64,000 nucleotides of DNA, from the NCBI RefSeq assembly GCF_009931435.1, contig NZ_CP043414.1, one strand, 5' to 3'. The first letter of the stretch is position 1; each line of letters opens with the position of its first letter. A model generated the notes under the pieces. The model was not told the origin of the DNA, did not search any database, and was given only the letters and a program-made list of their open reading frames with translations. The position numbers were made by a program, and so were the translations under genes. This stretch comes from Escherichia coli. GTDB taxonomy: Bacteria > Pseudomonadota > Gammaproteobacteria > Enterobacterales > Enterobacteriaceae. This document shows, one piece after another, positions 12,132 through 26,518 of the stretch.

Positions 12132-13052
12132 TTAAATGTATAACGACGATTCACCCACCGGGCGCGTTTTAAAGCGACGGTGGATCCAGAGGTATTGCTC
12201 AGGTGCGCGCATAATCTCTTTCTCGATAATCTTGTTCATATAGGCAGCGGCTTGATTTTCATCTGCCGGGTAGCCTTCCATTTCAGGGGTGATGAACAAC
12301 CGATATCCGCTGTAATCCGTTTTTCTGACCATCGTTACGGTCAACATGGCTGCGCCAGAGAGACGAGAGAGGACATAGGTGCCATTGGTTGTGGCAACAT
12401 TTTCTACCGCAAAGAACGGTGCGAAGGAGCTACCTTTACGACCATAATCCTGATCGGGAGCAAACCATACGGCTTCACCTTTCTTCAGCGCACCGACAAT
12501 ACCGCGCAGATTATTTCTGCCGATCATCGCTTTGTTAGAGCGCATGCGACCACGGGTCTGCACCCATTCCATCAGCTGATTATTATGCGGACGATAGGTG
12601 GCCATCATTGGCTGACATAGTCCCATCACGCGGCCGCCTAATTCCAGCGACATAAAATGGACGCCGACAACCATCACGCCACGATTTTGCAGTTGTGCGC
12701 GTTTGAGGTTATCCAGCCCTTCAACATCAAACCATTTACGTACGCGACTGTCGGGCCAGAACCATGCCATGCCGGTTTCTACCAGCGCCATGCCGAGTGA
12801 ACGAAAGTTTTCGGCAATCATCTTCTCGCGCTCTTCAGCAGAATGCTGTGGGAAACAAAGTTCCAGGTTCTTACGGGCGATAGATTCACGACGTTTCAGG
12901 AATGGTCGCGCCATCGTGCCGATACGCGTGCCGAGAAAACAGAGAACAGGGTAAGGAAGCTGTACCCAAAGCCAGAGTACACCAAGCCCAAACCATGTGA
13001 GCCAGTAGCGAGGATGTAGAAACTCGCGGGAAAATTTGCATTTTGGAAACAT
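12132..13052 (-). CDS. lpxP: Lipid A palmitoleoyl-ACP acyltransferase
   Basis: LpxL/HtrB-family acyltransferase; start set to MFPKCKF (306 aa) rather than the 22-codon longer track ORF. Confidence 0.85.
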   Translation of the reverse strand: MFPKCKFSREFLHPRYWLTWFGLGVLWLWVQLPYPVLCFLGTRIGTMARPFLKRRESIARKNLELCFPQHSAEEREKMIAENFRSLGMALVETGMAWFWPDSRVRKWFDVEGLDNLKRAQLQNRGVMVVGVHFMSLELGGRVMGLCQPMMATYRPHNNQLMEWVQTRGRMRSNKAMIGRNNLRGIVGALKKGEAVWFAPDQDYGRKGSSFAPFFAVENVATTNGTYVLSRLSGAAMLTVTMVRKTDYSGYRLFITPEMEGYPADENQAAAYMNKIIEKEIMRAPEQYLWIHRRFKTRPVGESSLYI

Positions 13053-13404
13053 AGTTACCTTCTGTAGATACGAATTGTTGTATCGCAGAAGATTCCATGT
13101 CGACAGCGGTACACTCAATTGATTGGGCCATCATGTACGACAATGGTTCCTGTAAAGAGTGTAAAGACTAGTCAGGACATAACCACGAGGAGCATGAATG
13201 CGGTATCTGTACTTTATCACTCGCTGACTGCTTTCAGCTACTGATTATTAATCGTGCAAAGTAAATATTTTTCCGTACGCAACAGTGTTGCATTTAACAT
13301 GCTGTTTTCATTGATGCTTAGCAAAAATTGCCAGAGGTTAAGGATTGTCTTACTATTAAAGTGACTGAAGTTACAGGTTTTTTAGCGCGGCAGGAGGTTG
13401 AGCT

Positions 13405-13647
13405 ATGATTTATTTATGGATGTTTCTCGCCCTGTGCATTGTCTGCGTAAGCGGATACATCGGTCAGGTACTGAACGTGGTCTCGGCGGTCTCTTCTTTC
13501 TTCGGCATGGTGATCCTCGCTGCACTCATTTACTACTTCACCATGTGGTTAACTGGCGGTAATGAACTAGTGACGGGGATATTTATGTTTCTTGCCCCGG
13601 CTTGTGGCTTGATGATTCGCTTTATGGTGGGGTATGGCAGGCGGTAG
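13405..13647 (+). CDS. yfdY: Small inner-membrane protein
   Basis: 80 aa, two predicted TM helices; synteny. Confidence 0.7.
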   Translation: MIYLWMFLALCIVCVSGYIGQVLNVVSAVSSFFGMVILAALIYYFTMWLTGGNELVTGIFMFLAPACGLMIRFMVGYGRR

Positions 13648-13723
13648 TAGTTCAGGATGGATCATTTGGGCAGGTGCTCACATCATCAACAGATATGATT
13701 GTTCACCTGCCATGTGACAGACG

Positions 13724-13999
13724 CTATCGCACAGGATGAATAAGATAATTCGCCTTTGTCGGAAAAGGGGGCGTGATGTCTTCTGTGAGATTTAATGGTG
13801 GCGCATCTTCTCTCATCTTAAACAAAATCGCCTGTGATGGTTGAAGTTTTGTAGAATGAGTTGTCGTCATCACTGATGTTTTTTCTGTCTCTTTATAGCT
13901 CGTCTCACTTCCACCACCAGAAATGGAAAATGCAAAAACATTGCATGCCATAATAGAGACCAATAAAAATAAGCTAAAAAGCATTAAGTTTACTTTCAT
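13724..13999 (-). CDS. ypdI: Small lipoprotein
   Basis: 91 aa; signal peptide with lipobox (LVSIMAC); synteny. Confidence 0.7.
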   Translation of the reverse strand: MKVNLMLFSLFLLVSIMACNVFAFSISGGGSETSYKETEKTSVMTTTHSTKLQPSQAILFKMREDAPPLNLTEDITPPFPTKANYLIHPVR

Positions 14000-14142
14000 A
14001 GAAAGTTATCCTGAGAATGGCTCACTGAGAACCTACGATGTTATGGCTGTATTTACATTTAATTAATCAGTATTTACATCGATATAATAAATGACATCTC
14101 TTTGTGGTATATAAGAATAGTTCTCTGCGACAGGAAGCATAT

Positions 14143-14160
14143 TCCTACAATTGTAAGACT
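14143..14160. promoter_or_regulatory. EvgA-box-like inverted repeat upstream of yfdX
   Basis: TTCCTACA-AT-TGTAAGAC versus the published 18-bp EvgA box (TTCYTACA-N2-TGTARGAA), 15/16 half-site matches. Confidence 0.55.
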
Positions 14161-14294
14161 AAAATACTTCTTGCGATAATAACTACAACTGTAAGATAAC
14201 CCTTTCAAAATGACCGTTGCTCTCTGATTTCTCATTTCATGCTCACCCAATATGATGGCGGCGTTTTCTAAAACTGTTAAAGAATGAGGTAAGT

Positions 14295-14927
14295 ATGAAA
14301 CGTTTAATTATGGCTACGATGGTCACAGCGATTTTGGCATCATCAACTGTATGGGCTGCTGATAATGCACCGGTAGCAGCACAACAGCAAACTCAGCAAG
14401 TTCAGCAAACCCAGAAAACTGTAGCAGCAGAGCGTATCTCTGAACAGGGTTTATATGCGATGCGTGACGTGCAGGTAGCGCGCCTGGCTCTGTTTCATGG
14501 CGATCCGGAAAAGGCAAAAGAACTGACCAATGAAGCTTCCGCTTTGCTGTCAGATGACAGTACTGAATGGGCAAAGTTCGCTAAACCAGGTAAAAAGACC
14601 AATATCAATGATGACCAATATATTGTCATTAATGCATCTGTCGGAATTTCTGAGAGTTATGTAGCGACACCAGAAAAAGAAGCAGCGATAAAAATTGCGA
14701 ATGAAAAAATGGCGAAAGGAGATAAAAAGGGCGCAATGGAAGAGCTTCGCCTGGCCGGTGTTGGCGTAATGGAAAACCAATATCTGATGCCGCTTAAACA
14801 GACTCGTAATGCACTTGCTGATGCGCAGAAACTGCTTGATAAAAAGCAATACTACGAGGCAAACCTGGCGCTTAAAGGTGCGGAAGATGGAATCATCGTC
14901 GATAGCGAAGCACTGTTTGTGAACTAA
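14295..14927 (+). CDS. yfdX: Periplasmic YfdX-family protein (EvgA regulon)
   Basis: 210 aa with signal peptide ([21 protein letters not shown]); Q-rich N-terminal region; synteny. Confidence 0.85.
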
Positions 14928-15171
14928 TGCTGACAGGCAGCATATTGAAGTAAAAGATTTTACTCCCTCCAGGCGACAATTTTTTATGACCACAATACGA
15001 CCGATTGTGGTCATAAAATTATTTGGCGCTCGCGGTTCTATAAACACGCATTTTCTATTCCTCAAAGTAAACATCAATAATCCCGTGTCATCACGAAATC
15101 ATTGTTTATGTTATGTTTTATGGTACGATTTAAAAATCGTAATCATTTCCCTAACTGTAAATCACAATCGC

Positions 15172-15189
15172 TTCTTACAGTTGTAAGAA
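15172..15189. promoter_or_regulatory. EvgA box (perfect half-sites) upstream of frc
   Basis: TTCTTACA-GT-TGTAAGAA, both half-sites exact matches to the EvgA consensus; about 250 bp upstream of the frc start. Confidence 0.65.
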
Positions 15190-15440
15190 TAACATCACAA
15201 ATGTCGCGGCTCTCTCTGATTACCGCAAACCAATATTTATCATATTCTTCTTTTCGTCCTCACTACTTACCATGCAAAAAGGAATTGGAAGTGGCGATGA
15301 AATGATTTTCAGCACTTGATACAGGAATTTAAAAATATCGAGTGCAGCTACGACGATATTTTGCGGATTATTTATAGAGGGCGTTATGCCTTAAATAAAC
15401 GCTAAATTAACATATATTTAATTAACTAATAGGTATTGCT

Positions 15441-16691
15441 ATGTCAACTCCACTTCAAGGAATTAAAGTTCTCGATTTCACCGGTGTGCAATCTGGCCCA
15501 TCTTGTACTCAGATGCTGGCGTGGTTTGGCGCTGACGTCATTAAAATTGAACGTCCCGGCGTTGGTGACGTAACGCGTCGCCAGCTGCGAGATATTCCTG
15601 ATATCGATGCACTTTACTTCACCATGCTTAACAGCAACAAACGTTCTATTGAATTAAATACCAAAACAGCGGAAGGCAAAGAGGTAATGGAAAAGCTGAT
15701 CCGCGAAGCTGATATCTTAGTCGAGAACTTTCATCCAGGGGCCATTGATCACATGGGCTTCACCTGGGAGCATATTCAGGAAATCAATCCACGTTTGATT
15801 TTTGGTTCGATCAAAGGGTTTGATGAGTGTTCGCCTTATGTGAATGTAAAAGCCTATGAAAACGTTGCTCAGGCAGCGGGTGGCGCGGCATCCACTACGG
15901 GTTTTTGGGACGGCCCGCCGCTGGTAAGCGCTGCAGCGTTGGGTGACAGCAACACCGGAATGCATTTGCTGATCGGTTTACTTGCTGCTTTGCTGCATCG
16001 CGAAAAAACGGGGCGTGGGCAACGAGTTACCATGTCAATGCAGGATGCCGTGTTGAACCTTTGCCGCGTGAAATTACGTGACCAGCAGCGCCTCGATAAG
16101 CTGGGTTATCTGGAAGAATACCCGCAGTATCCGAATGGCACATTTGGCGACGCAGTACCACGCGGTGGTAATGCGGGTGGTGGCGGTCAGCCTGGCTGGA
16201 TCCTGAAATGTAAAGGCTGGGAAACCGATCCTAACGCCTATATTTATTTCACTATTCAGGAGCAAAACTGGGAAAACACCTGTAAAGCTATCGGCAAACC
16301 AGAATGGATTACCGATCCGGCATACAGTACAGCTCATGCCCGACAGCCACATATTTTCGATATTTTTGCTGAAATCGAAAAATACACTGTCACTATTGAT
16401 AAACATGAAGCGGTGGCCTATTTGACTCAGTTTGATATTCCTTGTGCACCGGTTTTAAGTATGAAAGAAATTTCACTTGATCCCTCTTTGCGCCAAAGTG
16501 GCAGTGTTGTCGAAGTGGAGCAACCGTTGCGTGGAAAATATCTGACAGTTGGTTGTCCAATGAAATTCTCTGCCTTTACGCCGGATATTAAAGCTGCGCC
16601 GCTATTAGGTGAACATACCGCTGCTGTATTGCAGGAGCTGGGTTATAGCGACGATGAAATTGCTGCAATGAAGCAAAACCACGCCATCTGA
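15441..16691 (+). CDS. frc: Formyl-CoA:oxalate CoA-transferase (family III CoA-transferase)
   Basis: 416 aa; CaiB/BaiF family motifs; synteny with oxc. Confidence 0.9.
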
Positions 16692-16744
16692 TATTAACGG
16701 GGGCTTCTGGCTCCCAATTTATAAAAATTTCGAGGTTATTAATC

Positions 16745-18439
16745 ATGTCAGATCAACTTCAAATGACAGATGGTATGCATATCATCGTTGAAGCATTAAA
16801 ACAGAATAATATTGACACTATTTATGGTGTTGTAGGTATTCCTGTGACGGATATGGCGCGCCATGCCCAGGCGGAAGGCATTCGTTATATTGGTTTTCGT
16901 CATGAGCAATCTGCAGGCTATGCGGCTGCGGCAAGCGGTTTTCTTACCCAAAAGCCAGGGATCTGCCTGACCGTTTCTGCGCCAGGATTCCTCAATGGTT
17001 TGACCGCATTGGCCAACGCAACAGTAAATGGTTTTCCGATGATCATGATCAGCGGCTCCAGCGATCGCGCGATCGTTGATCTCCAGCAAGGTGATTATGA
17101 AGAGCTGGACCAAATGAATGCGGCAAAACCCTATGCCAAAGCGGCATTCCGCGTTAACCAGCCGCAGGATCTTGGCATTGCGTTGGCACGCGCTATCCGG
17201 GTCTCCGTTTCGGGTCGCCCTGGCGGTGTTTATCTTGATTTGCCAGCAAATGTCCTGGCTGCGACGATGGAAAAAGACGAGGCATTAGCCACTATTGTTA
17301 AAGTTGAAAACCCATCGCCAGCGTTATTGCCATGCCCGAAGTCAGTCACTAGTGCAATTTCGCTGTTAGCAAAAGCAGAACGGCCATTAATTATCCTTGG
17401 TAAAGGCGCGGCGTATTCACAAGCTGATGAGCAGCTTCGTGAGTTTATTGAAAGTACCCAGATTCCATTCCTGCCAATGTCTATGGCGAAAGGGATCCTG
17501 GAAGATACGCATCCACTTTCTGCGGCGGCTGCGCGTTCGTTTGCGCTGGCAAATGCTGATGTTGTCATGCTTGTTGGGGCGCGACTGAATTGGTTACTGG
17601 CGCACGGTAAAAAAGGATGGGCGGCAGATACACAGTTTATTCAACTGGATATAGAACCGCAGGAAATTGACAGCAACCGCCCCATTGCTGTGCCAGTCGT
17701 TGGCGATATTGCATCCAGTATGCACGGTATGCTGGCAGAACTGAAACAAAACACATTTACGACTCCACTGGTGTGGCGCGATATTTTAAATATCCACAAG
17801 CAGCAAAATGCGCAAAAAATGCATGAAAAGTTAAGTACAGATACCCAACCATTAAATTACTTTAATGCATTGAGTGCGGTGCGCGATGTATTGCGCGAGA
17901 ACCAGGATATTTATTTAGTTAATGAAGGGGCAAATACTCTGGATAATGCACGAAATATTATTGATATGTATAAACCACGTCGTCGTCTGGATTGTGGCAC
18001 CTGGGGTGTCATGGGCATCGGTATGGGCTATGCCATCGGTGCTAGCGTGACCTCTGGTTCTCCGGTTGTCGCCATTGAAGGTGATAGTGCTTTTGGTTTC
18101 AGTGGGATGGAGATTGAAACGATTTGTCGATATAACCTGCCGGTGACAATCGTTATTTTTAATAATGGCGGCATCTACAGAGGAGACGGTGTTGATCTCA
18201 GTGGCGCTGGTGCACCATCACCAACAGATCTATTGCACCATGCAAGGTATGACAAATTAATGGATGCATTTCGTGGCGTTGGATATAACGTCACCACGAC
18301 AGATGAACTTCGTCATGCTTTAACCACCGGTATTCAGTCGCGCAAACCGACCATTATTAATGTGGTCATCGACCCAGCAGCAGGAACTGAAAGTGGCCAT
18401 ATTACCAAACTTAACCCAAAACAAGTCGCTGGTAATTAA
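16745..18439 (+). CDS. oxc: Oxalyl-CoA decarboxylase (thiamine-diphosphate dependent)
   Basis: 564 aa; TPP-binding motif ([31 protein letters not shown]). Confidence 0.9.
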
Positions 18440-18507
18440 ATACTGACATCGTCTCCTCTTGCCAACTCATTATCGATGGTGAGGGGACCCTTATCGGAAA
18501 TACTATT

Positions 18508-19452
18508 ATGCTAACATTTTTTATTGGCGATTTATTGCCTATTATCGTAATCATGCTGTTGGGTTATTTTAGCGGCAGACGAGAAACTTTTTCAGAAGAT
18601 CAAGCCCGGGCATTTAATAAACTGGTATTAAACTACGCTCTTCCTGCGGCCCTATTTGTTTCTATTACCCGGGCAAACAGGGAAATGATTTTTGCGGACA
18701 CTCGCCTGACCCTTGTATCACTTGTGGTTATTGTCGGATGTTTCTTTTTCTCCTGGTTTGGTTGCTACAAATTTTTTAAACGTACCCATGCAGAAGCAGC
18801 AGTATGTGCATTAATTGCAGGTTCACCTACCATTGGATTCCTGGGGTTTGCAGTTCTCGACCCTATTTATGGTGATTCCGTATCAACAGGTTTAGTGGTA
18901 GCAATTATTTCTATTATTGTTAACGCAATTACTATTCCTATTGGTCTGTATTTGCTGAATCCCTCCTCAGGAGCGGATGGTAAGAAGAATAGCAATCTGA
19001 GCGCGTTAATCTCTGCGGCAAAGGAGCCAGTCGTATGGGCACCTGTTCTGGCAACGATCCTGGTGTTGGTTGGGGTAAAAATTCCGGCAGCATGGGACCC
19101 AACCTTTAATCTGATTGCGAAGGCTAACTCAGGGGTAGCGGTATTCGCTGCGGGGTTGACTCTGGCTGCACATAAATTCGAGTTCAGTGCTGAAATTGCT
19201 TATAACACCTTCCTGAAGCTGATTCTGATGCCACTGGCACTGCTTCTCGTTGGTATGGCATGTCATTTGAACAGCGAACATCTGCAGATGATGGTACTGG
19301 CAGGCGCATTACCGCCGGCATTCTCCGGAATCATTATTGCCAGCCGGTTTAATGTCTACACCCGCACTGGTACAGCGTCATTGGCTGTTAGCGTGCTGGG
19401 TTTTGTCGTCACGGCTCCCTTGTGGATTTATGTCAGTCGACTGGTTTCATAA
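18508..19452 (+). CDS. yfdV: AEC-family (auxin efflux carrier-like) transporter
   Basis: 314-aa polytopic membrane protein; synteny. Confidence 0.85.
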
Positions 19453-19525
19453 TTAATCATGTTATTAATTTTCATAAATGCCGAAGAGTCTTTTCACCTT
19501 CGGCTTTTTTTCAAGGCATAAGCAA

Positions 19526-20671
19526 ATGACAAATACTGAAAGCAAAGGCCCATTTGAAGGGTTATTAGTTATTGATATGACTCATGTCCTTAATGGGCCT
19601 TTCGGAACTCAACTTCTTTGTAATATGGGCGCAAGGGTAATTAAAGTTGAGCCGCCAGGTCATGGTGATGATACCCGCACATTTGGTCCCTATGTGGATG
19701 GACAGTCACTCTATTACAGTTTTATTAATCATGGCAAAGAGAGTGTGGTTCTTGATTTAAAGAATGACCACGATAAAAGTATATTTATAAATATGCTTAA
19801 ACAAGCTGATGTATTAGCCGAGAATTTCCGCCCAGGTACAATGGAAAAAATGGGGTTTTCGTGGGAAACGCTACAAGAAATCAACCCACGTCTCATCTAT
19901 GCTTCATCGTCAGGTTTCGGACATACCGGTCCGCTAAAAGATGCTCCGGCCTACGATACCATTATTCAGGCAATGAGTGGAATAATGATGGAAACGGGAT
20001 ATCCTGATGCTCCGCCAGTGCGTGTTGGCACCTCTCTTGCAGATCTCTGTGGCGGTGTCTATTTATTCAGTGGAATCGTGAGTGCGCTTTATGGCCGCGA
20101 AAAGAGCCAGCGAGGGGCGCATGTCGATATCGCGATGTTTGATGCCACTCTGAGTTTTCTGGAGCATGGACTGATGGCATATATCGCGACAGGGAAGTCA
20201 CCACAACGCCTGGGAAATCGCCATCCCTACATGGCTCCTTTTGATGTGTTCGATACTCAGGATAAACCAATTACTATTTGTTGTGGTAATGACAAGCTTT
20301 TTTCTGCGTTATGCCAGGCACTGGATCTGACGGAACTTGTTGATGATCTCCGATTTAACAGCAATATTTTACGTGTACAAAATCAAGCTATTCTTAAACA
20401 ATATATTGAGCGGACGTTAAAAACGCAGGCAGCTGAAGTTTGGTTAGCCAGAATAAATGAAGTTGGTGTGCCTGTAGCGCCGCTATTAAGTGTGGCTGAG
20501 GCCATTAATTTGCCACAAACTCAGGCGAGAAATATGTTGATTGAAGCTGGCGGAATAATGATGCCGGGTAATCCGATAAAAATCAGCGGCTGTGCGGACC
20601 CGCATGTTATGCCGGGAGCGGCAACGCTCGACCAGCATGGGGAACAAATTCGCCAGGAATTCTCATCGTAA
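19526..20671 (+). CDS. yfdE: Acetyl-CoA:oxalate CoA-transferase (family III)
   Basis: Paralogue of frc; start set to MTNTESKGPF (381 aa), 16 codons inside the track ORF. Confidence 0.85.
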   Translation: MTNTESKGPFEGLLVIDMTHVLNGPFGTQLLCNMGARVIKVEPPGHGDDTRTFGPYVDGQSLYYSFINHGKESVVLDLKNDHDKSIFINMLKQADVLAENFRPGTMEKMGFSWETLQEINPRLIYASSSGFGHTGPLKDAPAYDTIIQAMSGIMMETGYPDAPPVRVGTSLADLCGGVYLFSGIVSALYGREKSQRGAHVDIAMFDATLSFLEHGLMAYIATGKSPQRLGNRHPYMAPFDVFDTQDKPITICCGNDKLFSALCQALDLTELVDDLRFNSNILRVQNQAILKQYIERTLKTQAAEVWLARINEVGVPVAPLLSVAEAINLPQTQARNMLIEAGGIMMPGNPIKISGCADPHVMPGAATLDQHGEQIRQEFSS

Positions 20672-20726
20672 ATGTTAGATGTGCTGGTAAATAGCTCCCA
20701 CATTTGAACATTGTGGGAACCGCTAT

Positions 20727-23700
20727 TTAGTCATTTTGTTGACAGAAAACCGCAATCTCCTGGTCTAACTCTGCAATGTGTTCTTTAACAGAGTTCAGCA
20801 ACTTAAGAATTTCAGGCTTGCTGTCATCTGAAACGGGCGTTATTTCTAACTGGTGGCTAAGATTAATCAACTTTTGCAAATTCAGGATGTTAGCCGCACC
20901 GTGGATGCGATGAATACACTGATGGAAAGTTCTGTTATCGCCAGCTTCTAACGCATGAAACGCAGCGGGTAGATCTTTATGCGTTTCATGCTGGAAAGTC
21001 ATGAGAATCTCCTGCATCAGTTGTAGATCGTTCGCCGTATTATTTTTCAGGGCCTCGATATCAAGGTGGCGATACTGAGGTGCAATATGCGCAACCTGGT
21101 GTAACTGACTTAAATGTGTTTTCAGTACATCCAGGGTTAACGGTTTGAACAAACATAAGTTCATGCCGCAATTTAACCCTTTTTCACGTTCGTTAGCCTG
21201 TGCGTTGGCTGTAAGCCCCCAGATGGGTAAGGAAGAATTTTGCTCACGGAGTTTGCGAGTCAACTCAAAACCATCCATATTCGGCATATTAACGTCAGTA
21301 ATAAGCAGATCATAATGTTGCATACTGACTTTGTGTAGCGCTTGCACACCATCAGTTGCTTCATCAACATCATATCCTAATAGGTTTAGCTGGCGTTTGA
21401 GTAATAGCCTGTTGGTCGGATGATCATCCGCGATTAATATGCTCAACTTTTCAGGGAGTGTCATAGGTTGTTCTGCTTTTGCCTCGACAGTCGCCACTTG
21501 TTGGGTAATTTCTACCGGGATTGTGATCGTAAATGTCGTTCCTATGCCTGGATGACTTTCTAATGACAAATCGCCCTGCATGTTTTTAATTAATTCTTTG
21601 CAGATCATTAAGCCTAAACCAGAACCTGTTTGCTGACGACCTGCTGTTGTTTGGCTATAGCGTTTAAACAGTTGTTGTTGTTCTTCCTGCGATAATCCGC
21701 TTCCGGTGTCCATAATGGTCATTTTGATAACAGCGTGGTTGTCATCAATATGAACCAGGGAAGTCGTAATTTTTACTGCCCCCTCGGTGGTAAATTTAAG
21801 GGCATTACTCAGTAAATTAGACAGCACCTGCTTAAATGCTTGAGGGTCGATTTTAACCAGGTAGCGTTCAGGAAGCGTGCTGCTGCAATTTAATGCGATG
21901 GATTTGCTTGCAGCAATCGCACCGAAAGAATGACAAGTGTTTTGGACTAAAGTAGGGATATCGACCCATTGTGGTTGAAGTTGATAGTTACCCGACTCAA
22001 TTTTGTCGACATCAAGGATTTCACCAATTAAGCCGAGGAGCGACTGTCCGGTGGCGTAAGCAAGTGAAATCGCCTCCACACGTTGCTCCTTGCTAAGACC
22101 TGAACCCGACAGAAGTTCCAGGAAGCCCATAATGGAGCTTATTGGTGTTCTTATTTCGTGACTCATTGTTGCCAGGAACTGGCTTTTTGCGACAGTTGCA
22201 TTGATCGCTTTATTTCTTTCTACTTCGAGTGCATGAATTAAATCACGCGTCTCGGTAATATCTTGCCAACCACAAATATATACTGCATTGTCACTTGCAG
22301 GTAAATTACATAATGTATGCCAATGATTAATGCATCTTTTTTCAGTACCATTATTAATTTCAAAAACTTGGCTATATATTGTTCTGTTTTCTTTCGTTTC
22401 TGCTGTGACTTCATGCACATTAGAAAAAACATCTTTAAAGGGGGAGTCACTGTTTTCTAATGGTAACATTGCATTTTTGTAGTAATCAGCAGTGAAATAA
22501 TGTTCAAATGCACTATTGTGACTAATGACATTACCTTGCCAGTTTACAACATAAGTTGGATTCGGTAAGGAATCCGAGAGTGCTTTCCGGAATGATATTT
22601 GGTTTTCTAAATCACCCTGAATTACCTTACGACGACGAACTGAGCGTAACAGGTAGAATCCCCATAAAAGGCTACTGCCAACTAATAAAACGGATAAAGT
22701 CGTAACAATGTAAAATTGCTCACTATAGAGGTCCCATGTGTCAATGGTCACATTGGGCATTTTGATCCATTTTTCCGTCAGGCGCAGAACTTCGCTTGGG
22801 GGAATTGCATTCAATGCTTTATTAATAATATCCTTAAGTTCTGGTTCTCCGCGAGGAAAAGCGAACGAAAGCGATGCATTCTCAACGCCGGGAATAAGAA
22901 AATGATAAAGCTCATTAGGATAGTAATGGTCGATCATGTAACGCGAATTTAGCTGTGTCGCGACCAGGGCATCAAGTTCACCTTCCTTAACCTTGTGAAA
23001 TGCAGCGCTAGCATTATCGACTTGTATCCACTCAACCTCCGGATACATCTCTTTCAATTGCGAATGAAGCTCATAATAATATGGAATGGCAACTTTCATT
23101 CCTTTTTTTAAAGTTTGTTCACTATCAGGCGCTTTTTGCATGACGAAAACGTAAGGCGTTGTTATGAAGGCTTCAGCAAATAAAACATTATTTTCTCGAT
23201 CTTCACTATAAATAGCACCAGGTAATATATCCCATCCACCGGGATTAAGCTGTGTTCCGGCATGGATATTGTGTGAAACGGTGATCGGAGAAAAATTTAA
23301 ACCTGTTTGCAAGGTAATAATATTAAGAATATCCCCCATAACGCCCCGAACCGAGCCATTTTCATCAGTCATAGAATAGGGAGGGGAGTAAGGATTTTCC
23401 AGCACCTTTAAATCGGGATGTTGCTTAATCCACTGTTTTTCATGTTCAGTGAGTTCTAATGGTTTGTTCAGAAAGGCCAGGTTTCCTGTATCAAGCCAAT
23501 TTTGTGATACTTCATAGCGAACTTCATTTGTTAAAGCATCAACAAACCGATTGAGTACTTCATTAAGAATGACGGATTCTTTTCTGGTCAAGAAAAAATT
23601 ATATTGACGCGGCGAGTTATAATATTTCACTACATTTAAGGAGTGAGTGAAATAGCGGGAAATCATACTGCTGGTAATGATGTTACTACCAATAAAGTAA

Positions 23701-24320
23701 TCATTATGTCCGGTAGAAACGGATGCTAATGCCTGATATAAATTTGTAAAAGAGATAATTGTTGCTTTTGGAAATGATTGATGAATTACCTCGTCTGGGG
23801 GGTAATTTGCTACCCGAGCAATATTTACTGGTTTTGGTGAGGTAAGCGGTCGCATTGAGTCGTGAAGGGTGGTTACCAGCGCCGGAAAGGTAATTATCAA
23901 TGGTTTGGTTGCAGCAATGTCATTATTAAGAGGCGGAGAAGTAACTAAATGTGATAACACTATATCGACTTCACCTTCTGCAAGCGCGTCCATTGCTTTT
24001 TGATGATCTGCGTATTCCCGGAGTGTTAATTTGATATTTAACGCTCTTTTTAAAAGATTTAAATAATCCGCATTAATACCACGAACCCGTTGCTGCGAAT
24101 CGGTATGCAACAACGTAGCCGTTTGGGACTTGTGTACTGCAATCACAAGATTTTTTTTGCTCGCTAACCAACGTAATTCCTTGTTGCTCAGACGTAGTGG
24201 ATCAAGCGTGACACGGTTGTTACTACTGATGCCACGATATTCGATGTAATCTTCGTCTGCGAAACTTATGGTCGACCAAAGACCACAACAGAGAAGAAAA
24301 AAATAGGGTAAAAACTTCAT
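20727..24320 (-). CDS. evgS: Hybrid sensor histidine kinase (two periplasmic solute-binding domains, HisKA, HATPase, receiver, HPt)
   Basis: 1197 aa; H-box (ATMSHEIRTP), receiver (LLITDVNMPNMDGFELTRKLR) and C-terminal HPt. Confidence 0.95.
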   Translation of the reverse strand: MKFLPYFFLLCCGLWSTISFADEDYIEYRGISSNNRVTLDPLRLSNKELRWLASKKNLVIAVHKSQTATLLHTDSQQRVRGINADYLNLLKRALNIKLTLREYADHQKAMDALAEGEVDIVLSHLVTSPPLNNDIAATKPLIITFPALVTTLHDSMRPLTSPKPVNIARVANYPPDEVIHQSFPKATIISFTNLYQALASVSTGHNDYFIGSNIITSSMISRYFTHSLNVVKYYNSPRQYNFFLTRKESVILNEVLNRFVDALTNEVRYEVSQNWLDTGNLAFLNKPLELTEHEKQWIKQHPDLKVLENPYSPPYSMTDENGSVRGVMGDILNIITLQTGLNFSPITVSHNIHAGTQLNPGGWDILPGAIYSEDRENNVLFAEAFITTPYVFVMQKAPDSEQTLKKGMKVAIPYYYELHSQLKEMYPEVEWIQVDNASAAFHKVKEGELDALVATQLNSRYMIDHYYPNELYHFLIPGVENASLSFAFPRGEPELKDIINKALNAIPPSEVLRLTEKWIKMPNVTIDTWDLYSEQFYIVTTLSVLLVGSSLLWGFYLLRSVRRRKVIQGDLENQISFRKALSDSLPNPTYVVNWQGNVISHNSAFEHYFTADYYKNAMLPLENSDSPFKDVFSNVHEVTAETKENRTIYSQVFEINNGTEKRCINHWHTLCNLPASDNAVYICGWQDITETRDLIHALEVERNKAINATVAKSQFLATMSHEIRTPISSIMGFLELLSGSGLSKEQRVEAISLAYATGQSLLGLIGEILDVDKIESGNYQLQPQWVDIPTLVQNTCHSFGAIAASKSIALNCSSTLPERYLVKIDPQAFKQVLSNLLSNALKFTTEGAVKITTSLVHIDDNHAVIKMTIMDTGSGLSQEEQQQLFKRYSQTTAGRQQTGSGLGLMICKELIKNMQGDLSLESHPGIGTTFTITIPVEITQQVATVEAKAEQPMTLPEKLSILIADDHPTNRLLLKRQLNLLGYDVDEATDGVQALHKVSMQHYDLLITDVNMPNMDGFELTRKLREQNSSLPIWGLTANAQANEREKGLNCGMNLCLFKPLTLDVLKTHLSQLHQVAHIAPQYRHLDIEALKNNTANDLQLMQEILMTFQHETHKDLPAAFHALEAGDNRTFHQCIHRIHGAANILNLQKLINLSHQLEITPVSDDSKPEILKLLNSVKEHIAELDQEIAVFCQQND

Positions 24321-24324
24321 GTGA

Positions 24325-24939
24325 TTAGCCGATTTTGTTACGTTGCGCGAATGTGTAAAGATCCATCAGTGATTTACATTCTAATTTTTCCATCAGGCGA
24401 CTTTTATACGTGCTGACAGTTTTGTTGCTGATGAACATTTTTTCCGCAATGTCATTATTGTCCTTGCCATCAAGAATATACCTCATGACACTAATTTCTT
24501 GTTTCGATAAGGAGTCGAGTTTTTGCTGGTCGGACGTTAAACTTCCAACAAACCGGTTGAGAGAGAAAGGGAAATAGCAGTAGCCATTTTTTGCAGCTTC
24601 AATAGCCGCAATGATATTGTTCATGCCTTCTTTTTTACTCACGAATCCATTAGCGCCTGCATCAGCACAATGTTTCCCGTAAAAATGGTCATTTTTAGCG
24701 GAGACGATAATAATAATTCCGCTATATTGGCGCTTCCTCAGCGTTTCTAACACCTGGATACCGTTAACTCCGGGGATATCGACATCAATGATGACGATAT
24801 CAGGTTTAAGTGTTTCCACCCGCTGAACGGCACTTCCCCCTTCAGTCAACTCCGCTAAGATTTCAATATCGTTTTTGATCAATAAATTACGGATTGCTGC
24901 GATAGCAAGAGGATGGTCATCAATAATTATTGCGTTCAT
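24325..24939 (-). CDS. evgA: NarL/FixJ-family response regulator
   Basis: 204 aa; receiver domain plus LuxR-type HTH; immediately downstream of evgS on the same strand. Confidence 0.95.
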   Translation of the reverse strand: MNAIIIDDHPLAIAAIRNLLIKNDIEILAELTEGGSAVQRVETLKPDIVIIDVDIPGVNGIQVLETLRKRQYSGIIIIVSAKNDHFYGKHCADAGANGFVSKKEGMNNIIAAIEAAKNGYCYFPFSLNRFVGSLTSDQQKLDSLSKQEISVMRYILDGKDNNDIAEKMFISNKTVSTYKSRLMEKLECKSLMDLYTFAQRNKIG

Positions 24940-25163
24940 AGATTATTCCCTTTGCAATGAAGCATCTCCCTTCTCCCTGTAGTAATACAGACATAAGGCA
25001 TCATCTCATTTTCTCAATCAAAATAAGAAAATTTGAGCTTCCTTTAAGATAATTCAAAAAGTATACCATATAAATAGTCGGCATAAATGAAATGTCAACA
25101 ATAAAATCAGGGATAATACCGCTAACTTATAGTTTCAAATGAGTACTATAAGGCTTCTTATTA

Positions 25164-25181
25164 ATCCTACAGGCGTAAGAA
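25164..25181. promoter_or_regulatory. EvgA-box-like inverted repeat in the evgA / emrK divergent region
   Basis: ATCCTACA-GG-CGTAAGAA, 14/16 half-site matches to the EvgA consensus. Confidence 0.5.
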
Positions 25182-25354
25182 TTGTATTGCAAAAGTCACG
25201 GTTTAGTCCTCTGTTGTATCTTCTGCAACTCCTTTAAATTAGGCCTCCAACGTTCCTGGGATAATGTGTAACACATGCACTGTGTTTGATATGAAGAATG
25301 AATACTCTTTTCATTCAATTCATAAATTTCATCTATGCGAAATGAGAGATAATA

Positions 25355-26518
25355 GTGGAACAGATTAATTCAAATAAAAAACATTCTGACAGAAGAAAAT
25401 ATTTTGCTTTATTAGCAGTGGTTTTATTTATTGCGTTTTCAGGAGCCTATGCCTATTGGTCACTGGAATTAGAAGACATGATTAGTACAGATGACGCCTA
25501 TGTTACGGGGAATGCTGATCCAATTTCTGCACAAGTCTCAGGCAGTGTCACTGTCGTTAATCATAAAGATACGAACTTTGTTCGACAGGGTGACATTTTA
25601 GTTTCACTGGATAAAACTGATGCTACGATTGCACTCAATAAAGCTAAAAATAATCTGGCAAATATTGTGCGACAAACGAATAAACTATACTTACAGGATA
25701 AACAATACAGTGCCGAAGTCGCTTCAGCACGTATCCAGTATCAACAATCTTTAGAAGATTATAATCGTCGTGTGCCGCTAGCAAAGCAGGGGGTTATTTC
25801 AAAAGAAACGCTGGAGCACACCAAAGATACGTTAATAAGTAGCAAAGCGGCATTGAATGCAGCTATTCAGGCTTATAAAGCGAACAAAGCCTTAGTAATG
25901 AACACACCATTAAATCGCCAGCCACAAGTTGTTGAAGCTGCGGATGCAACCAAAGAAGCCTGGTTAGCGCTTAAGCGTACGGATATTAAGAGTCCGGTTA
26001 CTGGTTATATTGCCCAGCGAAGTGTGCAGGTTGGCGAAACAGTGAGTCCTGGACAATCGTTAATGGCTGTCGTACCGGCACGTCAAATGTGGGTTAATGC
26101 CAACTTTAAAGAAACACAACTCACGGATGTACGGATTGGTCAATCGGTTAATATAATCAGCGATCTTTATGGTGAAAATGTTGTGTTTCATGGTCGGGTG
26201 ACAGGGATCAATATGGGAACCGGCAATGCGTTCTCCTTATTACCTGCACAAAATGCGACAGGGAACTGGATCAAAATCGTTCAGCGTGTACCGGTTGAGG
26301 TGTCTCTGGATCCAAAAGAACTCATGGAACATCCCTTGCGCATTGGTTTATCGATGACTGCAACCATTGATACCAAGAACGAAGACATTGCCGATATGCC
26401 TGATCTGGCTTCATCCGTGACGTCCATGCCTGCTTACACCAGTAAGGCCTTAGTTATCGATACCAGTCCGATAGAAAAAGAGATTAACAACATTATTTCT
26501 CATAATGGACAACTTTAA
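25355..26518 (+). CDS. emrK: Multidrug efflux membrane fusion protein (EmrA family)
   Basis: 387 aa from a GTG start; HlyD-family periplasmic adaptor; stop overlaps the emrY start. Confidence 0.85.
   Translation: MEQINSNKKHSDRRKYFALLAVVLFIAFSGAYAYWSLELEDMISTDDAYVTGNADPISAQVSGSVTVVNHKDTNFVRQGDILVSLDKTDATIALNKAKNNLANIVRQTNKLYLQDKQYSAEVASARIQYQQSLEDYNRRVPLAKQGVISKETLEHTKDTLISSKAALNAAIQAYKANKALVMNTPLNRQPQVVEAADATKEAWLALKRTDIKSPVTGYIAQRSVQVGETVSPGQSLMAVVPARQMWVNANFKETQLTDVRIGQSVNIISDLYGENVVFHGRVTGINMGTGNAFSLLPAQNATGNWIKIVQRVPVEVSLDPKELMEHPLRIGLSMTATIDTKNEDIADMPDLASSVTSMPAYTSKALVIDTSPIEKEINNIISHNGQL

Follow-up and report, generated by a model that had tools for sequence, protein, structure and literature searches.

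The two palindromes upstream of yfdX and frc, which a first-pass annotation had taken for EvgA boxes, are with a probability of about 0.9 the EvgA operator sites already described in Escherichia coli K-12; the reading is correct, but it is not new. The window, by which we mean the whole 64 kb stretch of DNA that was analysed, is E. coli chromosome: positions 13000-16000 match 5,423 of 5,426 complete E. coli genomes, the best of them at 99.3% identity over 3 kb. Its source is a non-K-12 E. coli, and compared with K-12 the flank directly upstream of the frc box represents a different haplotype. Both boxes are carried base for base by K-12 MG1655.

Sites were located by reading the window directly and by scanning it with the pattern TTCYTACANNTGTARGAA, which describes an 18-bp inverted repeat, TTCYTACA-NN-TGTARGAA. 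The consensus was checked on the emrK box and on three other K-12 boxes, all of which fit with at most two mismatches:

K-12 safA box: TGCCTACAGCTGTAAGAA, at most 2 mismatches
K-12 ydeP box: AGCCTACACCTGTAAGAA, at most 2 mismatches
K-12 yegR box: TTCCTACTTATGTAGGAA, at most 2 mismatches

Within the window the pattern identifies the following sites:

14142..14159, unstranded: distal yfdX EvgA box TTCCTACAATTGTAAGAC, near-perfect with 1 mismatch, identical in K-12
14180-14197, unstranded: proximal yfdX EvgA-box-like site TAACTACAACTGTAAGAT, 3 mismatches, core CTACA-NN-TGTAAG intact
15172..15189, unstranded: frc-promoter EvgA box TTCTTACAGTTGTAAGAA, perfect with 0 mismatches, identical in K-12, predicted centre -74.5
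25164-25181, unstranded: EvgA box ATCCTACAGGCGTAAGAA in the evgA-emrK intergenic region, 2 mismatches

The frc palindrome thus lies at exactly the positions where the first-pass annotation had placed it. The palindrome it reported at yfdX also exists, but its coordinates, given as 14143-14160, were off by one, the box being situated one base further left. The proximal yfdX site, 38 bp downstream of the distal box, was absent from its list. When at most one mismatch is allowed, the pattern gives 2 matches in 64 kb, compared with 0.00 in 100 dinucleotide-preserving shuffles; when at most three are allowed, the window contains 4 matches where 0.63 would be expected, a count that none of the shuffles attains.

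The gene order is lpxP-yfdY-ypdI-yfdX-frc-oxc-yfdV-yfdE, followed by evgS-evgA on the opposite strand and then by emrK-emrY, in agreement with annotated E. coli genomes. The flanking genes had been named correctly: YfdX, formyl-CoA transferase, oxalyl-CoA decarboxylase, YfdV and EvgA all give NCBIfam equivalog matches. The genes and the element that bear on the regulation are:

14295..14927, + strand: yfdX (NCBIfam equivalog)
14982..15018, + strand: intrinsic terminator hairpin and T-rich tail after yfdX (-24.8 kcal/mol, z -6.6)
15441-16691, + strand: frc, formyl-CoA transferase (NCBIfam equivalog), first gene of the operon downstream of the frc box (15441..20671)
16745-18439, + strand: oxc, oxalyl-CoA decarboxylase (NCBIfam equivalog)
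18508-19452, + strand: yfdV (NCBIfam equivalog)
19526-20671, + strand: yfdE, last gene of the frc operon
20727-24320, - strand: evgS, cognate sensor kinase
24325-24939, - strand: evgA, cognate response regulator (EvgA equivalog, 437.9 bits against a cut-off of 251)

The cognate regulator pair is therefore present in the same genome as the boxes, some 5 kb away. The hairpin after yfdX, with its T-rich tail, supports the separation of yfdX and frc into two transcription units that the first-pass annotation had assumed; its stem is kept in Yersinia vastinensis. An Rfam scan of 13000-26000 at E ≤ 1 returned nothing in the frc leader, nor anything elsewhere apart from a chance-level match inside evgS.

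Direct EvgA control of both the yfdX and the frc-oxc-yfdV-yfdE units, as had been predicted for this DNA, is established according to the literature (PMC3720670, PMC8147483, PMC5706723, PMC4283999), where the evidence for physical binding at yfdX and frc takes the form of statements in citing papers. Specifically, the inverted repeats upstream of yfdX and yfdWUVE are stated to be bound by EvgA (PMC3720670), and the same is stated of the yfdX and frc promoters (PMC8147483). [quoted passage not shown] 2009 is cited there; the fusion is reported to be strongly induced at pH 5.7, acid induction in non-B2 isolates reaching as much as 60-fold, and evgAS from MG1655 is reported to restore its induction in Nissle 1917 and UTI89 (PMC5706723). 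In evgS-constitutive mutants frc is reported to show the highest fold increase, with oxc also among the most induced genes, and the same source reports no EvgA sites except at genes whose regulation by EvgA was known before (PMC4283999). Citing papers credit direct control of yfdX and of frc-oxc-yfdV-yfdE to Masuda & Church 2002/2003 and Itou et al. 2009. The footprinting and the reporter fusions in an evgS-constitutive mutant that the first-pass annotation had suggested as checks have, by the account of the citing literature, already been done, and the link it drew between the oxalate genes and the EvgS/EvgA acid-resistance circuit is borne out by the binding and induction published there. 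Given these binding and induction data, its interpretation is right but already known. A literature search for genome-wide EvgA binding data (ChIP-exo, DAP-seq, SELEX) gave nothing relevant.

We can also use the boxes to compare the promoters that they serve. Six promoters were aligned on the box: frc, yfdX (on its proximal site), emrK, safA, ydeP and yegR. In all six a TAnnnT hexamer starts 53 or 54 nt past the box, whereas any other offset is shared by at most four of the six within ±1 and by at most three at the exact offset. The positions after the box that are invariant in 6/6 are C9 and A10 (CA), T26 and C27 (TC), and T31. The promoters do not amount to six independent observations, since safA resembles ydeP in part, as frc does yfdX. 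Counting back from the hexamer, a 17-bp spacer leads to a weak -35 located right after the TC..ATT element, which puts the box centre at about -74.5, with a common range of -72.5 to -75.5 over the six promoters. The ATCCTACAGGCGTAAGAA box conforms to this layout, having a -10-like TAAATT at the 54-nt offset towards emrK; box and hexamer fit the control by EvgA that is already known for emrKY.

The layout predicts where transcription should start, and these predictions can be compared with published distances from start site to start codon, taken from PMC10469882 Table S5, which sets RegulonDB v10.5 (MG1655) beside EDL933 Cappable-seq:

ydeP: layout prediction 178 nt, RegulonDB 178 nt, EDL933 178 nt
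yegR: layout prediction 41 nt, RegulonDB 43 nt, EDL933 41 nt
yfdX: layout prediction 32 nt, RegulonDB 31 nt, EDL933 108 nt

The layout agrees with the start-site distances listed there for ydeP, yegR and yfdX, with box centres at -74.5 for ydeP, -72.5 to -74.5 for yegR and -75.5 for the proximal yfdX site. The conserved positions after the box may reflect an extended EvgA contact or the site of another factor. Extended to the whole EvgA regulon, the layout would be a rigid one, with a box at about -74.5 and a TC..ATT element abutting the -35, possibly as a third EvgA half-site. No description of such a rigid layout was found in the papers accessible for checking. We also note that the TC element resembles an EvgA half-site in safA, ydeP and yegR, where its sequence is TCCTA or TCTTA.

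Two further elements can be placed at frc from this comparison:

15212..15221, + strand: CTCTCTGATT element at frc, separated from the frc box by 22 nt, as its yfdX counterpart is from the proximal site
15243..15248, + strand: predicted frc -10 hexamer TATTCT, placed from the shared layout, 21 nt after CTCTCTGATT

Since the frc box fits the shared layout, frc transcription is predicted to start near 15255 (K-12 coordinate about 2,493,440), with a leader of about 186 nt; the position of -74.5 for the frc box is predicted from a -10 hexamer at offset 54. The start-site data searched contain no experimentally mapped start for frc, and the supplements of the Cappable-seq MG1655 and Shigella M90T papers hold no entry for these genes. 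A 15-codon open reading frame in the predicted leader (15272-15319, MQKGIGSGDEMIFST) lacks both a Shine-Dalgarno sequence and conservation in Y. vastinensis, and is unlikely to be a gene.

Sequence variation around the frc box is unevenly spread. The approximately 30 bp directly upstream of it (15140-15171) are polymorphic, and over the interval 15140-15260 identity to the window reaches 99% or more in just 23 of 5,407 matching records, whereas most records, K-12 included, stand at 90-95%. The box itself and the sequence downstream hardly vary in the strains aligned, and E. coli and Yersinia hardly differ over the first 20 nt past the box (TAACATCACAAAT.TCGCG).

The control region of yfdX is more complicated, with two sites and apparently two promoters. 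Beside the two sites already listed, it contains:

14151..14180, + strand: upstream yfdX sigma-70-like promoter, with -35 TTGTAA at 14151-14156, an 18-bp spacer and an extended -10 TGcGATAAT at 14172-14180
14220..14229, + strand: CTCTCTGATT element at yfdX, at 22 nt from the proximal site, with the weak -35 beginning at its final two T
14251..14256, + strand: -10 hexamer TATGAT of the EvgA-dependent yfdX promoter, with a start near 14264 and a RegulonDB start-codon distance of 31 nt

Relative to the RegulonDB start (~14264), the proximal site is centred at about -75.5, the slot that the box also occupies in ydeP, yegR and frc. The distal box is centred at about -113.5 from the same start, which falls outside the canonical -72.5 to -75.5 position, and at -36.5 from the upstream start at 14187. 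The right half of the distal box contains the -35 of the upstream promoter, and the start expected for this promoter, 14187, corresponds to the 108-nt start-codon distance listed for EDL933 (PMC10469882 Table S5). Given this overlap with a second promoter, the distal box could act in part as a repressing element.

Natural variants of E. coli show how this region can be rearranged. Genomes fall into two main identity classes for the yfdX control region, one of 3,960 genomes with at least 99% identity and one of 1,220 with 90-95%. In strain A10 a 38-bp deletion has left one improved hybrid box (TTCCTACAACTGTAAGAC) in the proximal slot, with its left half from the distal box and its right half from the proximal site; the reciprocal duplication of 38 bp gives strain 573 three sites; and in ETEC6 an IS5-family remnant stands in place of the distal box. 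The A10 deletion and the 573 duplication look like products of recombination between the two box cores. In all three strains a site at the proximal position is kept.

To follow the region beyond E. coli, we used a scan for YfdX with one genome per species, which returned E. coli, Y. vastinensis, six Buttiauxella and one contaminant scaffold. The last of these is a 241 bp scaffold of Limosilactobacillus vaginalis DSM 5837 (NZ_GG693475.1) that encodes YfdX residues 157-210, 100% identical to the window, and is almost certainly E. coli contamination of the assembly. Y. vastinensis IP38594 (CACVAF010000001.1) has the whole yfdX-frc-oxc-yfdV-yfdE-evgS-evgA module, with a YfdX 84% identical to that of E. 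coli, inserted between arsRBC and type I-F CRISPR-associated genes, which suggests that regulator, targets and operators moved horizontally as one unit into this species. Its frc box is TTCTTACACGCGTAAGAA, with the half-sites kept and an upstream flank that cannot be aligned, and a TATTAT stands at the offset of the predicted E. coli -10. In the spacer between yfdX and frc the best-conserved block is the box together with about 90 nt downstream, a phylogenetic footprint. Upstream of yfdX both sites are kept, the distal box in a degraded form (TTCTTACCGGTATAAGAC, 3 mismatches). Buttiauxella has a single box, TTCTGACATATGTAAGAC, at the proximal yfdX position, followed by CTCTGATT and a -10-like TATTCT. 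From E. coli to Buttiauxella the core CTCTGAT of the CTCTCTGATT element at yfdX does not change; the Yersinia version of the element is CTATCTGATT. Boxes are thus retained in orthologous promoters, both of them in Y. vastinensis and the proximal yfdX site in Buttiauxella, and across genera the box co-occurs with evgA/evgS.

These observations bear on which of the two sites activates yfdX. One account, to which we give an even chance, is that activation proceeds via the degenerate proximal site and that the distal box is auxiliary, either recruiting EvgA cooperatively, shutting off the upstream promoter, or both; it is a refinement of the EvgA reading rather than a true rival to it. In its favor, the proximal site has the spacing of the ydeP and yegR boxes and the distal box does not, the Buttiauxella box aligns with the proximal and not with the distal site, and A10 and ETEC6 have lost or remodelled the distal box and kept a site in the proximal slot. 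The 108-nt distance listed for EDL933 likewise backs the existence of the upstream promoter. Against it, the proximal site has three mismatches and lacks the outer TTC/GAA, such that it may bind poorly on its own, and in the aligned E. coli genomes the distal box shows 100% conservation. A more elaborate version would make the region a switch with two promoters and two sites. The distal box would serve at once as operator and as the -35 of the 14187 promoter, the proximal site would cover that start while sitting at -75.5 of the downstream promoter, phosphorylated EvgA would silence the one promoter and activate the other within a layout that is rigid regulon-wide, and the 38-bp indels would tune the switch. 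We consider this version rather unlikely as a whole.

A true rival to the EvgA reading is that the palindromes are mainly recognised by another regulator of the LuxR/NarL family, for example RcsB, and that their dependence on EvgA is indirect. The yfdX gene of K. pneumoniae is indeed controlled by RcsB (PMC6394985), and scanning with the RcsB-box pattern KMRGAWTMWYCTGS gives one weak match, with two mismatches, at 14134-14147, which overlaps the left edge of the distal box. However, the pattern is too degenerate for such a match to carry much weight, with 72 matches in the window against 42 expected, and the frc box has no match to it at all. The literature cited above also reports direct EvgA binding and activation, and the box travels with evgA/evgS across genera, which makes the RcsB alternative very improbable. 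That the palindromes are chance inverted repeats without regulatory role deserves hardly any weight, since the only point for it is that intergenic DNA is generally AT-rich, whereas matches with at most one mismatch occur in 0 of 100 shuffles, the distance from box to -10 element is fixed in six promoters, the boxes are conserved across genera within diverged flanks, and published functional data exist for them.

The EvgA reading then leads to a simple scheme, for which binding and induction come from the literature, geometry, conservation and significance were computed here, and we infer where frc transcription starts and how the two yfdX sites divide their work. At mildly acidic pH, EvgS phosphorylates EvgA, a response regulator of the NarL/FixJ type, a dimer of which then binds the inverted repeat centred near -74.5 and activates a weak sigma-70 promoter with a poor -35. 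A distance of -74.5 is typical of activators that act from upstream of the polymerase. At frc, the single perfect box would drive frc-oxc-yfdV-yfdE through the long predicted leader. At yfdX, the weak proximal site would probably be loaded with help of the strong distal box upstream, which is probably a high-affinity helper site and may interfere with the upstream promoter.

The link from EvgS/EvgA to yfdX and the oxalate-catabolism genes (frc, oxc, yfdV, yfdE) is textbook E. coli acid resistance and in that sense no new biology, and the case shows that a genuine operator was recognisable from sequence alone by the first-pass annotation. What our analysis adds is a fixed geometry of EvgA-box promoters that reproduces three published start sites, a testable start site and long leader for frc, and a second yfdX site that is more deeply conserved and likely the activating one. 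The residual novelty is small, comprising the shared layout, the frc start and leader, and the two-site, two-promoter arrangement at yfdX with its 38-bp indel variants, and even these may already be described in primary papers.

Compared with known systems, the locus has relatives at several distances. The Buttiauxella and Klebsiella (KvgAS/KvhAS) loci are alike in that yfdX adjoins a gene for an EvgS-family kinase. In Buttiauxella, however, an evgS-like gene rather than frc follows yfdX, and the neighbours within 3 kb on each side of yfdX are gadB-like, hdeB and hdeD; the box-like palindrome differs as well, with a G for T in the half-site (CTGACA compared with CTACA), and any regulation there is putative. 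Bordetella BvgAS is the classical homologue of EvgAS. There an unorthodox hybrid kinase phosphorylates a regulator of the NarL/FixJ type, whose targets at BvgA-activated promoters are inverted heptad-like repeats ahead of a weak promoter; in many cases the upstream site has high affinity and the sites nearer the -35 have lower affinity. The recognition sequence is unlike the EvgA box. A comparable spreading or oligomerisation of EvgA towards the -35 is hinted at by the conserved C9, A10, T26, C27 and T31 alone. The closest comparison is the K-12 EvgA regulon itself (ydeP, safA-ydeO, yegR, emrKY, yfdX and frc; Masuda & Church 2003, Itou et al. 2009), which has the same 18-bp repeat, the same distance from box to -10 and the same neighbouring evgAS genes, and from which nothing of substance differs here.
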